Notes: generated by a model from the letters alone, not told the origin. A stretch of 64,000 bases of DNA from an uncultured delta proteobacterium (GCA_963696385.1 CAVOKF010000004.1:672001-736000); one strand, 5' to 3'; counted from the stretch's first letter, positions 54,477 through 59,727 are shown. Program-made: numbers and translations.

Positions 54477-56605
54477 TTATCTCTTCGACACGACGCTCCA
54501 GGTCAAGGCCTGCGCATCGCGCACGTCGTCGGTGCCAGGGCTTACCCGTCGATAGCGACCTTCTGCATCCATCTCGTAGACGCGGCAGGTGTCCAAATCG
54601 AGTGGCGCTTGGCATTCGCGACGCAAGCGATCGCACAGCGCTGGGCTCGTGACGGGAAACAGCAATTCGACGCGGCGATCGAGGTTTCGCGGCATCCAGT
54701 CCGCGGAGGCAAGAAAGAACTCCTCCTCGCCCAAAGGCCCGAAACCGTACAGTCGTTCATGTTCGAGGAATCTGCCGACGAGCGAGCGAACTCGTATTCG
54801 ATCCGAAACGCCCGGCATTCTCGGCCTTAGGCAGCAGATTCCGCGAACGACCAGATCGACTTCGACCCCGACTTGAGACGCTGCATACAGCGCGCGGATG
54901 ATCTCGGGGTCCACCAGCGCGTTGAGCTTGGCGAAGATTCTCGCCGCAAGGCCCGAGCGGGCGCGGTCGGATTGGGCCCCGATTTTTTCGAGGAAGGCGT
55001 GCCGCAGCCTCTTCGGTGCGACCGCGATCTTGCGATACGGGTAACTCCGCGAGAACCCCGACAGGGCGTTGAAGAGCTCCGATAGGTCATCGCCGATCTC
55101 GGTGTCGGCGGTGAGCAGGCCCACGTCCGTATAGAGCTTCGCCGTCGAGGCGTTGTAGTTGCCCGTCGACAGATGCACGTAGCGCCGAAGCTCGTCGCCT
55201 TCGCGCCGCACGACGAGCAAGGCTTTGGCGTGCGTCTTCAGCCCGCGCGATCCGTAGAAGACGTGCACGCCGGCCCGCTCCATGGCGCGGGCCCATCCGA
55301 TGTTGTTCTCCTCGTCGAAGCGGGCCTTCAGCTCGATCGATACGGCGACTTGTTTGCCGTTGTCCGCAGCGCGCACCAGCGTGCGGACGACCTCGGCGTT
55401 CGATCCGGCGCGGTAGAGGGTCATCTTGATCGCCAGCACGTTCGGATCGTCGGCGGCGAACGACAAGAGGTCGAGAACCGGTACGAACGACTCGTACGGA
55501 TGGTGCAGCAAGATGTCGTGTTCTCGAATCGCCTCGAATGGACTGTCGTGCGCAGCCCATTCGGGAGGAACGCGCGGCGGCAGCAGCGGGTCGCGCAGAT
55601 CCGGACGCGGCAGCGATGCGAGCGAGAACAGGGACGCGAAACCGAGCAGAGATCCGCACTCGTACAGGTCGTCGGGGTCGAGTTCGAGCTTTTCGAGCAA
55701 CAGCGTCCGAATCCGCTCGGGAACGCCCGGCGCGACCTCCAAACGAACGCCGGCGCCGAAGCGGCGCCTCCTCACCTCGCGGTCGACGAGCGCCAAGAGA
55801 TCGTCGGCCTCTTGCTCCAGGATTTCGAAGTCCATGTCTCGCGTGACGCGGAATGCATGAGATCCACGATCCGCATACCCGGGAATAAATCGCTCAGATT
55901 CGAGGCAATCACGTCTTCGAGCGGCACGAATTCGAGGTGCGCCGTGCCTTTGGCGTGCGGGTCCGCTGGTTCGTGGCCAAGGGGCACGAATCGCGGCAGG
56001 CTTTCGGGAACTTTGACGCGCGCGAAACGCCATTCGAGCGTAGTGGGCTCCTCGACTTCCACCGCGAGCGATAAAGATAGATTCGACAGAAATGGAAAGG
56101 GATGGAGGGGATCGACGGCGAGCGGAGTCAGGATCGGGAACACCGATTTGCGAAAATAGGCCCTGAGCCACTCGTGCTCCGAGGCGCTCAGCGAATGGGT
56201 GGGACGTATGCGGATTCCGGCGTTCGCGAGCGCCGGCAGGAGATCGCGCTCGAACAGGGCATCCGCTCGGGTGAGGTCGGCGAGCACCGTGTGACGGACC
56301 TGCTCGAGCTGCTCGGGGACCGACAGGCCGTCGGCCCCCGCAGTGGGAACGAGGGCCTCGAGCTGCTCGTGGAGACCCGACACGCGAATCATGAAAAATT
56401 CGTCCAAGTTCGAGCCGAAGATCGCCAAGAACTTCAGCCGCTCGAGCAGAGGCCATGCGTCGTCGCAGGCTTGGTCGAGTACGCGGGCGTTGAACGCCAG
56501 CCACGAAAGTTCTCGGTTAATGAAGAGGCGCGCATCGTCGACTGCGCCGGCCGGCTTGGGACTCGACGAAGCGACGGGCGCGCCTTCGCCGCCGGAGAGG
56601 GTCAT
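54477..56605 (-). CDS. ppk1: Polyphosphate kinase 1, one-base deletion frameshift near 55863
   Basis: NRELSWLAFNARVL, NLDEFFMIRV, HPFPF in frame 1; FRVTRD, LLHHPYESF, IKMTLYR, KTHAK, GRFLEH, SADWMPRNLDRRVE in frame 2. Confidence 0.93.
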
Positions 56606-56658
56606 GACCGACCGGTCGCAGACCTTTGCGACGAACCTGCGTGGATTTGTTCACGATG

Positions 56659-56673
56659 TGGCAAAAACGATGC
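56659..56673 (+). promoter_or_regulatory. Sigma54-like -24/-12 site upstream of peptide/di-heme genes
   Basis: TGGCAAAAACGATGC has correct GG-N10-GC spacing; partial consensus match only. Confidence 0.35.
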
Positions 56674-56774
56674 GTAGGCGGCGCTCCAGCGCCTCTTTGT
56701 GCGGGCCCGCCTCTATGTTAGGAGACCTGCAAGAGGTGCCACCTGAACGCCCACGGGGCAAGGATTGGAGACCC

Positions 56775-56927
56775 ATGAAGAGAACGCTGATTGCTGCGAC
56801 CCTTTTTCTTGCCCTGGGTGCGCTTGGGGTGGGGCTCGTTTTTGGCTCTGCCGGTCAGGCCCGCGCGGCGAGCCTCGCCGAGAGTCGGCTGAGTACCCCG
56901 TCGGACGGGGATGGCGGAGGTTGGTGA
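56775..56927 (+). CDS. 50-aa secreted peptide (Sec signal + about 19-aa mature part ending GGGW)
   Basis: GGAG RBS; MKRTLIAATLFLALGALGVGLVFGSAGQARA|ASLAESRLSTPSDGDGGGW. Confidence 0.65.
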   Translation: MKRTLIAATLFLALGALGVGLVFGSAGQARAASLAESRLSTPSDGDGGGW

Positions 56928-59022
56928 TCGCCTTGCGCGCGCCGGAGCGGCGCTCTCGCTCGCAGTCGCCGTAGGGAGCTGCACGCCGGGTTCAGGTCCC
57001 CATGTCCCGCCCGCGCCCGGGCCCGCGAAAGGTGCACGCGCGGAGGCGCTTTCGGACCGGCTGGCTGGGTTACGCGCTTGGGAGGGTGCGACCCGAGATC
57101 GCACCGACTTCGCTCGCGTGCGAACGTCCGACATCGCTCTCGGCACGGATCCCTACGTCATTCGGCGCATGGATGGCCCGAAAGGCGACGATCCAGCGCA
57201 GGCCGGGCGCTTCGTCGGCATTTTGCGTGGGCGCGGGGCGCTGGTGGAGCTCGATGAAGCCTTGCACGAGGTTCACCGGCTCGCAGCGCCGGGTTCCCCG
57301 AGCGGTCTGGCGGTCTCGCCGGCCGCGGTGTTTGCCGTCGGCGAGCTCTCCAGCCGCGTCGCGCGTTTCCGCAGCGTGCGCGGGCGCCTCGAGCCCGCGG
57401 GGTTCATCAATCTCCCCGGGGTTCGTGCGATGCGCGATGTCGCGACGGGCCCTGAGGGCGTCGTGTACATCGTTGAGGAGCACGATGGTCGGCTCGTGAC
57501 GTTGCGTCCCGGAAGCGATGACGAGGAGACCCCGGCGGCGCGGGTGGACGCCGTACTGTGCCAGGGTCCCATACACGTGCTGAGGGTGGCGAAGTTCCTT
57601 CTGGTGGATTGTCTCATCGACCATCAAGTGGTCATCCAGTCGGTCGATGCCCGCGGGTTCCCCGACCCTTCGACCGAGATCCGCATCGCCCGAGACGGTC
57701 CGATTTGGGGGATCGATGCTCTGCCGCGGGCGGACGGGTTGATGGTCGCTGTCGGAGCCGTCGAGGATCACCCGCTGGATCGCACTCAGGGGTCATTCGG
57801 CTTCATCGACTCATTCGTCGCGCTGTATGGGGTGGACAACGGCCGAGCGGCCAAGATCGGAGAAGTGAACGCGTCCGCCTACGGGCTTGTGACGCCCAAG
57901 GCATTGAAGGTCCTGCCTCTTCTCCCCTCCGGCGGGCTCGAAATCGTCGTCGCTGGTTATGGCTCCGATCGTCTCGCTCGGTTCGACTGGACGGATGCGA
58001 ATCCGCTTGGGTCGCCGACCGTCCAAATGCGCACCATCCCGCCGGGAGCCGCTATGATCGAAGCCGCCGGAGATGGATCCTGGCTCATCGCCGATCCGTT
58101 GATCGATTCGTGGGTGCGGGTCACATCGTCCGATACTGTCGTAATGCCCGTGGAGGACGACCTGTCGCGTCAGCGCACGGTCGACTCGAGGTTGGGTGAG
58201 GCACTCTTTTTCACCACGCTGATGGCGCCGTGGAACCGGTCGGACGGCCGTCTCAGTCGCTTCACGTGCGAGACATGCCACTTCGAAGGTTACGTCGATG
58301 GTCGCACCCACCGCACCGGTCGTGGCGATATCCTGGCGACGACGAAGCCGCTGGCCGGGCTGCTGAACAATCGACCCCACTTTTCGCGAGCTCTCGATCC
58401 GGACCTGACGACGATGGCGGACAACGAGTTTCGCGTTGCCGGAGCGAAGAGCGACCACGATCCATGGTTCGCTCTGTCGGCCGAGGACTTTCCGTGGATC
58501 CGCCGCCTCGGCGTGACCGGAACGACGCTCACCGCCGAAACTCTTCGACGCTCCCTCGTGAGTTTCTTCATGGATTTCACACCGCGGCCAAACCCTTCCG
58601 TCGAGGGTCGCACGCATTTTAGCGATCTCGAGCGTTCGGGTGCGATCGTTTTCCGGGACGAGTGCGAAGGTTGTCACCAAGCCCGTCTGGTGGCCGACGA
58701 CCCGTCGACCCGCGTTCCGTTCGAAGGATGGCAAGCTCTCGTGATGACGCCTCAAGGAGCGATCGTTTGGGCCCGTGCCGAATACGCGAAGACGGGGGTC
58801 ACGCCTTACGTCAACGAGCGTGGCGCACGGGTCGTTTCGCTGAGGCGCCTGTACAAGAAGCACCCGTATTTCACGAACGGAACCGCGAGGGACGTACGCG
58901 GGGTCCTCGATCGCGTTCGAGTGGCAGACACCCGCTTCTTCCACGAGGGCGGGTCCGAATCCGCGCGAAGCCTCTCGGAAGCGGAAAAAACGGCCTTGGC
59001 GGCATTTCTCGACTTGCTTTGA
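56911..59022 (+). CDS. Lipoprotein: beta-propeller + di-heme cytochrome c peroxidase/MauG-like domain
   Basis: Lipobox VGSC; YncE/YVTN-like strand repeats; GEALFF...CETCH, G..VF..ECEGCH, SLRRL...PYFTNG, E..AL.AFL..L. Confidence 0.8.
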   Translation: MAEVGDRLARAGAALSLAVAVGSCTPGSGPHVPPAPGPAKGARAEALSDRLAGLRAWEGATRDRTDFARVRTSDIALGTDPYVIRRMDGPKGDDPAQAGRFVGILRGRGALVELDEALHEVHRLAAPGSPSGLAVSPAAVFAVGELSSRVARFRSVRGRLEPAGFINLPGVRAMRDVATGPEGVVYIVEEHDGRLVTLRPGSDDEETPAARVDAVLCQGPIHVLRVAKFLLVDCLIDHQVVIQSVDARGFPDPSTEIRIARDGPIWGIDALPRADGLMVAVGAVEDHPLDRTQGSFGFIDSFVALYGVDNGRAAKIGEVNASAYGLVTPKALKVLPLLPSGGLEIVVAGYGSDRLARFDWTDANPLGSPTVQMRTIPPGAAMIEAAGDGSWLIADPLIDSWVRVTSSDTVVMPVEDDLSRQRTVDSRLGEALFFTTLMAPWNRSDGRLSRFTCETCHFEGYVDGRTHRTGRGDILATTKPLAGLLNNRPHFSRALDPDLTTMADNEFRVAGAKSDHDPWFALSAEDFPWIRRLGVTGTTLTAETLRRSLVSFFMDFTPRPNPSVEGRTHFSDLERSGAIVFRDECEGCHQARLVADDPSTRVPFEGWQALVMTPQGAIVWARAEYAKTGVTPYVNERGARVVSLRRLYKKHPYFTNGTARDVRGVLDRVRVADTRFFHEGGSESARSLSEAEKTALAAFLDLL

Positions 59023-59097
59023 CGCACACTCGTCGACATGACCCCTGGACTTGGTCTAAGGTCGCCTCGCTTGTTTTCGGAAGGGGTAATCAGAAAT

Positions 59098-59628
59098 ATG
59101 TTGAAGCAAAAATACGCAGGGGCGCTTGCACTTGTCGCGATCACGGGGGCGATCACGTGGGGGGGAGTCGTCGTCACCGGTTGCTCGTCCAGTGAGTCGA
59201 GCTCTCCCCCCGAGGACTCGGGGTTGGACCAAAGCGCTTCCGACGCGCCGAGCGATCAGGGAACGGGTTCCGAGACGACGGCCGACGCCTCCGATGCCGG
59301 CGTGAGCGACGCCTCCGACGGCGCGGTCGGCGATGCGTCCGATGCCGGCGTGAGCGATGCGTCCGATGGCGGCCACGGCGATGCGTCCGACGGCGAGGTC
59401 GGTGACGCCTCCGATGCCGGCGTGAGCGATGCGTCCGATGGCGGCCACGGCGATGCGTCCGACGGCGAGGTCGGCGACGCGTCCGACGGCGCGGTGGGCG
59501 ATGCGTCCGACAGCGGGGTGGGCGATGCGTCCGACAGCGGGGTGGGCGATGCGTCCGACAGCGGGGTGGGCGATGCGTCCGACAGCGGCAGCGACGCGCC
59601 CTCGGATGGCTCAGTCGAAGCCGACTAA
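59098..59628 (+). CDS. Acidic low-complexity repeat lipoprotein
   Basis: Lipobox VTGC followed by Ser-rich linker and DASDxxxx repeats. Confidence 0.75.
   Translation: MLKQKYAGALALVAITGAITWGGVVVTGCSSSESSSPPEDSGLDQSASDAPSDQGTGSETTADASDAGVSDASDGAVGDASDAGVSDASDGGHGDASDGEVGDASDAGVSDASDGGHGDASDGEVGDASDGAVGDASDSGVGDASDSGVGDASDSGVGDASDSGSDAPSDGSVEAD
59284..59592 (+). repeat. Coding tandem repeat, 24-nt unit x about 13 (DASDxxxG/S)
   Basis: Units such as GATGCGTCCGACAGCGGGGTGGGC; includes a 72-nt higher-order duplication. Confidence 0.92.
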
Positions 59629-59637
59629 CGGAAACGG

Positions 59638-59665
59638 GGCACCGGGCTGACAACAGCCCGGTGTC
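59638..59665. terminator. Hairpin between convergent genes
   Basis: GGCACCGGGCTG-ACAA-CAGCCCGGTGTC 12-bp stem; no clear U tract. Confidence 0.55.
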
Positions 59666-59727
59666 TCGCAATTTCCGCGTTTCGGGTTACCGGATCCGGC
59701 TGGCCGCTGTCCTGTCGCAGCCGGCCA

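Follow-up and report, generated by a model that had tools for sequence, protein, structure and literature searches.

A conserved gene pair encoding an exported Gly-Trp-ended small protein and a propeller-dihaem lipoprotein in Polyangia

Two overlapping genes within a 64,000-nucleotide stretch of DNA from an uncultured delta proteobacterium (GCA_963696385.1, CAVOKF010000004.1:672001-736000; the whole stretch is referred to here as the window, and positions are counted from its first nucleotide) encode a small exported protein that ends in Gly-Trp and a 703-residue lipoprotein, here called the enzyme, in which a beta-propeller precedes a domain with two haem-binding motifs. This two-gene unit is a conserved module consisting of a small exported carrier protein and a propeller-dihaem lipoprotein, and the two products are very probably functional partners. 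The pairing suggests an uncharacterised extracytoplasmic reaction centred on tryptophan. Two families that lack a curated model are thereby seen to occur as a tightly conserved pair in Polyangia of soil and peat, the small partner being of a gene type that annotation pipelines overlook.

Conservation of the small protein and its terminal Gly-Trp

The small open reading frame (ORF) extends from the ATG at 56775 to the TGA at 56925-56927 on the plus strand (56775..56927; 50 codons plus TGA), and its product is MKRTLIAATLFLALGALGVGLVFGSAGQARAASLAESRLSTPSDGDGGGW. A Shine-Dalgarno-like GGAG (56767..56770, plus strand) is located 4 nt 5′ of the ATG. Inspection of the sequence reveals a signal-like N-terminus, comprising a predicted Sec signal of 31 residues (56775..56867, plus strand; ...GQARA|AS), and a GGGW end, the codons of the terminal Gly-Gly-Trp occupying 56916..56924 (plus strand). 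Signal-peptide cleavage sites, here and throughout, were read by eye. The enzyme gene (56911..59022, plus strand) begins at an ATG inside the small ORF, and the resulting 17-nt overlap (56911..56927, plus strand) suggests that translation of the two genes may be coupled. The small ORF with its ribosome-binding site, signal and AxA site, the overlap, the propeller and the two CxxCH motifs were all found where the initial annotation of the window had placed them.

Cleavage at the predicted ARA|AS site would leave ASLAESRLSTPSDGDGGGW, a free 19-mer. The window protein contains no lipobox Cys (...LVFGSAGQARA|AS, a reading with which short-read contigs concur), whereas the small protein of the 90%-identical relative L001 reads ...LVFAC|AG in place of LVFGSAG, and the window copy appears to have lost this residue. 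Searches with the small proteins returned no Pfam match, NCBIfam matches that were all below cut-off, and no known family of precursors or recognition elements of ribosomally made, post-translationally modified peptides (RiPPs).

Genome loci for comparison were drawn from two sources. A collection of species-representative genomes yielded 16 loci around homologues of the 703-residue protein, with the record titles Polyangiaceae, Polyangia, Minicystis and Labilithrix, and a 401-genome sample of the phylum, the window's own genome included, yielded 11 genomes with the gene, which in this sample was confined to the window's class except for one weak partial hit. Leaving out L011 (partial), L018 (identical to L004) and L027 (distant and partial), 24 distinct full-length loci were counted, with enzyme identities of 42-90%; locus L006 is from the cultured Minicystis rosea DSM 24000. 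The initial annotation had named as a test whether homologues are preceded by a conserved signal peptide with an acidic or Gly-rich tail and a terminal Trp. A signal-peptide frame ending Gly-Trp-stop (a GW gene) was indeed found to adjoin the enzyme gene in 22 of the 24 genome loci; it lies just upstream in 21 of these 22, ending between ~80 nt before and ~20 nt after the enzyme start, and at the 3′ end of the enzyme gene in L005. A scan of metagenomes retained 80 loci, 62 of which were assessable (at least 250 nt upstream), and a GW-ended exported frame was present in 46 of the 62, with 36 distinct tails, 33 of them ending GGW; these counts are only partly de-replicated and include some repeats of genome loci. 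The GW gene is 3′ of the enzyme gene in three metagenome loci (L059, L086 and L088). Locus L058 carries GW-ended lipoprotein genes on both sides of the enzyme gene (L058:1386-1796 and L058:4112-4327).

Conservation across the small proteins is limited to the export signal and the two terminal residues. In an alignment of the last 30 residues of the 22 genome copies (alignment A4), G29 and W30 are the sole invariant positions and 19 of the 22 sequences end GGW. The Trp is never replaced by Phe or Tyr, either in the 22 genome tails or in the 36 distinct metagenome tails. The linker between signal and tail is a highly variable, low-complexity sequence (Ala/Pro-, Gly/Ser- or Lys/Glu/Asp-rich).

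Most relatives of the small protein possess a lipobox (LLGC, AVGC or LAC). In L024 (L024:885-1457, plus strand), the GW tail ends a 190-residue lipoprotein with a PSCyt1 (planctomycete cytochrome C) domain; the haem motif of this domain is CTNTACH (Cx4CH, not CxxCH), and Gly-rich linkers flank the domain. A second class of GW partner, encoded upstream of the enzyme gene in 10 metagenome loci (L076, L081, L083, L087, L091, L094, L098, L101, L102 and L104), consists of a Sec signal with an AxA site, a ~60-residue 8-Cys domain (APCxxACxDEIxxC...C..L....R.C...C.K.IV.DC..DLSVCGATSARP; in short, APCxxAC...VCGATSARP), a Pro/Gly linker and GGW. The secreted, RiPP-like 19-residue peptide envisaged by the initial annotation therefore describes only the window lineage, most relatives being lipoproteins or carrying a small domain. 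The tail appears to be a module that rides on different carriers, the carrier being for the most part nothing but a tether. The functional part is likely to be the tail itself, since its carriers range from a bare lipid anchor and a short Sec peptide to a PSCyt1 lipoprotein and an 8-Cys domain; and given that the carrier is only a tether at most loci, and in the window not even that, it would seem that the Trp itself must matter.

Such ends are rare in the window's genome, where 110 of 90,111 frames of at least 40 residues end in GW (0.12%) and 14 end in GGW. Four of the GW-ended frames have a start that resembles a signal, and of these the small ORF described here is alone in looking like a real exported protein. 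A general C-terminal sorting tag was rejected for this genome, as the small ORF is the sole credible exported protein among its 110 GW-ended frames. The 22 genome small ORFs terminate in TGA (9), TAG (9) or TAA (4), and the Gly codons of the tail are mostly GGC, with GGAGG spelled in only 2 of the 22 loci, so that selection is seen to act at the level of the protein's end. A Shine-Dalgarno origin of the GG-rich end was rejected on the basis of these codons, the rarity of GGAGG and the position of some GW genes 3′ of the enzyme gene.

The stop codon of the small ORF sits in TGATC, and the initial annotation had cautioned that GATC sites in this assembly are error-prone. The interval 56600-57686 is covered by short-read contigs from two runs of two studies (X1, which may be the sample from which the window came, and X5), in which just two positions depart from the window, 56766 T>C and 57409 A>G. 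Both differences restore GATC (GGATTGG to GGATCGG and CAATC to CGATC), base 56766, just 5′ of the GGAG, being C and not T in the contigs. GATC errors in the window assembly are real, perhaps as long-read miscalls caused by methylation, and the TGA at 56925, in the region (56920-56930) over which doubt had been raised, stands. A sequencing error at TGATC was rejected, as the contigs keep the TGA and the counterparts use all three stop codons; a frameshifted enzyme N-terminus was rejected as well. Contigs from an RNA run (X20) are 90-95% alike over 57444-58600, outside the small ORF; they derive from a relative, DNA carry-over is possible, and they are no evidence of expression.

Fold and family of the enzyme

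The enzyme has a predicted lipobox (VGSC, with Cys24 at 56980-56982), and its gene is single-copy in the window's genome. No Pfam or NCBIfam model was matched at a meaningful score by the small protein, the enzyme or the product of a third gene downstream. Clustered at 90%, the enzyme family numbers at least 1,254 members, none of which has a precomputed Pfam domain or any name other than "hypothetical"; at 50% identity it falls into 335 clusters, nearly all of ~650-720 residues and of one layout.

The full-length AlphaFold2 model (predicted local distance difference test score (pLDDT) 76.9, predicted template-modelling score (pTM) 0.81) comprises a propeller followed by a helical haem domain. 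The predicted 7-bladed beta-propeller (residues ~80-415; 57148..58155, plus strand) contains 28 strands, and its repeats are similar to NHL/"Pizza" blades. Its best Foldseek match in the PDB was the beta subunit of hydrazine synthase (HZS; 5c2v_B, E 4.5e-11). A propeller loop of acidic/His character, GGVEDHPLDRTxGSFGxIDSF (residues 282-302), is conserved, with E285, D286, D290, R291, G294, F296, D300, S301 and F302 invariant.

The two-haem domain (residues 415-703; 58153..59019, plus strand) carries the first haem motif, CETCH (C453-H457; 58267..58281, plus strand), which is invariant, and the second, CEGCH (C585-H589; 58663..58677, plus strand), of which both Cys and the His are invariant. 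Both CxxCH motifs are invariant in alignments of 38 and of 53 sequences. When modelled alone (289 residues, 53 sequences), the domain reached a pLDDT of 85.3, and Foldseek returned 41 PDB matches at E<=0.001; those listed were all bacterial cytochrome c peroxidases (bCCP), MauG, MauG-like proteins or HZS gamma. The first of them, 6e1c (E 1.8e-5), was followed by peroxidases, MauG and HZS gamma. The 6e1c entry, entitled [quoted passage not shown] and taken here to be MbnH, was also the best match in a profile search of PDB sequences (E 0.0016). Structural alignment with VIA-align gave Z values of 13.6 for MauG, 13.3 for 6e1c, 12.9 for YhjA, 12.9 for HZS gamma and down to 10.3 for the peroxidases, the next unrelated cytochrome reaching only 5.7. 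Based on these models and alignments, the haem domain has the bCCP/MauG fold; because the Z values are tied, the fold does not separate a peroxidase from a MauG-like enzyme.

Sequence comparison places the enzyme at some distance from the canonical members of this superfamily. PF03150 (CCP_MauG) gave no match to the window enzyme at E<=1 and weak matches to 7 of 38 homologues (best E 0.037), and alignment with hhalign to the three PF03150 proteins of the same genome (95%, E 2.4e-8) covered the second-haem half only. Superfamily motifs are recognisable nonetheless, namely RLGEALFF...SRFTCETCH, ERxGAxVF...CExCH, SLRRLYKKxPYFTNG and a final ...FLDLL. The stretch that follows haem 1 is near-invariant in the family (CETCHFEGYVDGRTHxTGRxD...ATTKPLxGLxNxPHFSRALD), the motif NxPHFSRALD being invariant; it is of low confidence in the full-length model and aligns with canonical members only up to CxxCH. 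The enzyme is accordingly a divergent superfamily member with its own highly conserved haem-1 surroundings. Canonical CCP_MauG proteins of the same genome (L028 and L029, contig C8) have FWDGR/TWSGR and ...AFY, the Tyr of which presumably marks the MauG ligand position, and appear to be MauG-like rather than Met-ligated peroxidases.

A complex prediction that combined residues 47-703 of the enzyme (alignment A1) with the C-terminal 30 residues of the small protein (alignment A4) and two haems scored 0.06 and 0.11 against a mark of 0.32; it was run without controls and counts neither way.

Possible roles of the terminal tryptophan

In the mechanism proposed here, the first gene encodes an exported small carrier composed of a signal peptide, usually a lipid anchor, sometimes a small domain, and a flexible linker, ending in Gly-Gly-Trp with a free carboxylate. 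The second gene, usually overlapping or a few bases downstream, encodes the propeller-dihaem lipoprotein. The tail would enter the enzyme and offer its terminal Trp to the active site as a free tryptophan on a string, whereupon haem 1, activated by peroxide or O2, would turn the indole by oxidation into hydroxy-Trp, kynurenine or a quinone. What is formed might be a peptide-borne redox or metal-binding group, or might be released. That the tethered terminal Trp is a dedicated substrate of the haem domain and is oxidised there is given an even chance.

We infer oxidation of the Trp by analogy, because those relatives of the haem domain that have been characterised target Trp in a protein encoded with them, as MauG does on the Trp of its partner protein (PMC6405878 and PMC7876137, in the text accessible to us). 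A C-terminal (G/S)GW tag is a preferred peptide substrate of a tryptophan halogenase, according to the accessible part of bioRxiv 10.1101/2022.07.19.500721. Such a tag is accepted like free Trp by a Trp-specific enzyme, and on all these grounds oxidation of the tethered Trp is rated the likeliest of the roles considered. If the Trp is modified, it would constitute the simplest substrate of a MauG-like enzyme yet, one residue on a string; the pair would then offer a tractable model for haem-driven Trp chemistry and a possible source of a new extracytoplasmic peptide-borne cofactor or metal ligand.

Several observations weigh against oxidation of the tethered Trp, some concerning the pairing and others the haem environment. 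No GW ORF was found in the fetched DNA of two genome loci, L010 (3-kb flanks) and L019 (1.5-kb flanks), or in that of 16 of the 62 assessable metagenome loci. L010, L068-L071, L074 and L078 belong to an enzyme clade (~50% identity) in which an rsmG/gidB-like methyltransferase gene directly precedes the enzyme gene and the fetched DNA shows no GW gene. At the GW-less loci, either the peptide is encoded elsewhere in the genome or the enzyme works without it. Comparison of enzymes with an adjoining GW gene (38 sequences) and without one (10), 11 loci having been dropped because the full ORF was not recovered, revealed no conserved position that differs and three weak positions only (58, 246 and 458), a result that fits an unlinked peptide as well as independence of the peptide.

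The haem ligands, which were assigned from alignments and not from model coordinates, depart from those of MauG. Where MauG and BthA have Tyr and the peroxidases Met as the sixth ligand of haem 2, the window enzyme has Val (Val or another non-ligand residue in the family); this column was placed by alignment with the Tyr of 6e1c and with the ...AFY of the PF03150 proteins from the same genome. In PYFH[DN]G, Thr takes the place of the His. Nine residues beyond the Tyr/Val ligand column, His678 is invariant, which suggests that haem 2 may be bis-His ligated. As reported in the accessible text of PMC6405878, MauG and BthA require Tyr-His ligation to reach the bis-Fe(IV) state, and Tyr-to-His variants of both lose this state and keep peroxidase activity. 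Remote oxidation of the MauG type is therefore doubtful in an enzyme that lacks the Tyr ligand and is not to be assumed; the MauG/MbnH-like dihaem enzyme put forward initially is upheld as regards its fold. The first-haem half aligns with canonical CCP_MauG only over LGxxLFF...CxxCH (E 0.002, probability 14%), and owing to this weak alignment a counterpart of the haem-bridging Trp of MauG could not be placed. Moreover, a tail that only binds would explain the genetics equally well.

A tail of this kind would act as a non-covalent ligand, its Gly-Trp carboxylate plugging the propeller pocket or the haem-1 cavity, so that the small protein would be a regulatory or structural subunit with no Trp chemistry, such as a gate or inhibitor that gives way to the true substrate. 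This is considered possible, if somewhat unlikely. It draws on the same genetic evidence as oxidation of the Trp, the gene overlap suggests near 1:1 synthesis of the two proteins, the canonical Tyr ligand of MauG-type chemistry is absent, and beta-propellers commonly bind peptide ends. The strict use of Trp, never Phe or Tyr, nevertheless exceeds what a hydrophobic plug would need, and the partner has the fold of the peroxidases and MauG, whose characterised relatives oxidise partner Trp. Were the Trp only a ligand, it would represent a new way in which a periplasmic haem enzyme is regulated or assembled.

Oxidation of the tethered Trp might also be cast in a more specific form, as an extracytoplasmic analogue of mycofactocin, pyrroloquinoline quinone (PQQ) or pearlin logic, in which a c-type haem enzyme would convert an exported C-terminal Trp to a new Trp-derived redox cofactor or copper-binding group. 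One candidate for the product would be a free C-terminus that bears Gly-Gly-kynurenine or a quinone, and the scaffold would be disposable and often lipid-anchored, with the product acting as a tethered swinging arm or being clipped off. This extension is tentative and, taken as a whole, unlikely.

Quite improbable is a docking tag, whereby the tail would bring a cargo or an anchor (e.g. an electron-donor cytochrome or a lipid anchor in the other membrane) to an enzyme whose real substrate is peroxide or a nitrogen oxide, as in HZS gamma. Consistent with such a role, the L024 tail is borne by a PSCyt1 cytochrome-like lipoprotein, and an ~800-residue membrane protein with a Cytochrome_C554/multihaem domain, a possible electron-transfer partner, is encoded directly upstream of the GW gene in one clade (L009:312-2660 and L012:176-2602), with look-alike ORFs in L013 and L014. 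The architecture of the enzyme is also that of the fused HZS beta-gamma-like proteins (PMC12758564, accessible part). Most loci, however, have no cargo beyond a lipid anchor, the enzyme has its own lipobox, and the mature window peptide, a free 19-mer, would have nothing to dock.

The absence of any partnership at the protein level, the small ORF being a translated leader that regulates the enzyme gene, a by-product of the ribosome-binding-site region or an assembly or annotation artefact, is barely credible: the small ORF does overlap the enzyme start and the assembly does contain GATC-site errors, but small ORFs carry export signals and lipoboxes, GW ORFs lie downstream in some loci, three stop codons are used, GGC predominates among the Gly codons so that no GGAGG results, short-read contigs from two studies keep the TGA and the background rate of GW ends is 0.12%. 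A regulatory leader peptide in particular was rejected in view of the export signals, the downstream placements and the variants with a folded domain.

Whether the Trp serves as substrate or as ligand, the pairing would give a first functional handle on the widespread HZS-beta-gamma-like fusions described in the accessible part of PMC12758564.

Neighbouring genes and known systems

The initial annotation had included an acidic DASD-repeat lipoprotein and a hairpin downstream of the enzyme gene, and both are present. The lipoprotein ORF (59038..59628, plus strand; likely start 59098, lipobox VVTGC) contains DASDG(x)VG repeats encoded by a 24-nt tandem unit in 12.8 copies (59283-59589). Short-read assemblies break up in this 24-nt repeat. 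The gene was found only in the window (59098-59628) and in the 90% relative L001 (L001:4269-4865). It is co-transcribed here but is lineage-specific and outside the conserved module, and its proposed membership of the system was rejected on account of this restricted occurrence. The GC-rich hairpin that follows it (59629..59676, plus strand; -46.7 kcal/mol, z -6.3, equalled by none of 200 shuffles) is likely to be the transcript end; a simple terminator scan missed it because it has no T run. No conserved downstream gene was seen among the loci compared.

The neighbours of the module in the window (ppk, a DUF4019 protein, a DUF4136 lipoprotein and a cNMP-binding protein) look unrelated. The ppk gene (54477-56605, minus strand) is split into overlapping frames, an ORF at 55772-56605 (N-terminal part) and one at 54477-56504 (the rest), with the frame switch located within 55800-55920, at ...ggtatgcggatcgtggatctcatgc..., which holds two GATC sites. 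This split is probably a 1-nt assembly error and not a broken gene.

Among characterised systems, MauG with pre-methylamine dehydrogenase, in tryptophan tryptophylquinone biogenesis, resembles the pair: MauG, too, is a periplasmic dihaem protein with this fold (Z 13.6 over 241 residues, root-mean-square deviation 4.7, 23% identity), and the Trp on which it acts belongs to a partner encoded alongside it. MauG differs in having no propeller, in acting on an internal pair of Trp residues in a folded subunit of 15 kDa instead of a flexible terminal-Trp tail, and in its Tyr294 ligand, the position of which is Val in the window enzyme. Trp93 of MauG lies midway between the haems; BthA has Ser, so this residue is not universal. 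A co-encoded Trp-bearing partner is common to the MauG/MbnH/BthA type and to the present pair, in which the GW protein would take this part and its Trp would be the putative target. In MbnH/MbnP, and in MopE/CorA with their dihaem partners, Trp is converted to kynurenine and copper is bound. The MbnH gene likewise adjoins that of its Trp-bearing partner; unlike the small protein, MbnP is a folded copper protein, and the loci read here showed no copper genes.

The domain order of the enzyme is that of HZS beta-gamma, with a 7-bladed propeller (5c2v_B) followed by a dihaem domain (5c2v_C, Z 12.9), whereas sequence similarity to 5c2v_C is marginal (E 0.72). Fused beta-gamma-like proteins are highly prevalent in environmental bacteria and have no assigned function; as far as the accessible text of PMC12758564 extends, they are discussed with an alpha-subunit partner, some with extra c554 domains, and no small Trp-ended partner is mentioned. 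The criteria for such fusions include an alpha-subunit homologue encoded next to them and, at gamma Cys165, a third covalent bond between Cys and haem. No large haem protein is encoded beside the enzyme gene in the window, where no search aimed at alpha-subunit homologues was made.

A further parallel is provided by quinohaemoprotein amine dehydrogenase (QhpABC), the ~37-kDa subunit of which is presumably a 7-bladed propeller. This system shares with the present pair two c-type haems and, next to the ~37-kDa subunit, a ~9-kDa peptide whose Trp becomes a quinone cofactor, and its haems have been suggested by the authors to perform the last periplasmic oxidation (PMC7876137, accessible part). 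According to the same text, the gamma peptide is, unlike the GW protein, cross-linked by a radical S-adenosylmethionine (SAM) enzyme, hydroxylated by a cytoplasmic flavoprotein and exported by an ABC transporter (PMC7876137). None of these maturation genes was present in the loci read here, and the QhpABC Trp is internal and Cys-linked. No quinohaemoprotein amine dehydrogenase chain appeared among the fold matches listed, a result that is compatible with a relationship.

In mycofactocin (MftA, ...GVY), PQQ (PqqA) and pearlin/ammosamide (Trp) biosynthesis, a carrier peptide supplies its C-terminal residue as raw material. The likeness proposed here is that the ribosomal peptide body would be only a carrier and the enzyme would act on the last residue. 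Those pathways are cytoplasmic and employ radical SAM, flavin or PEARL enzymes, whereas both partners here bear export signals and the enzyme is of the c-type haem class. No published description of a GW-ended partner of a dihaem enzyme was found in a search that lay outside subscription journals. A MauG-fold enzyme with a dedicated Trp-bearing partner is known, and what is new is the type of partner, together with a protein family that no model covers.

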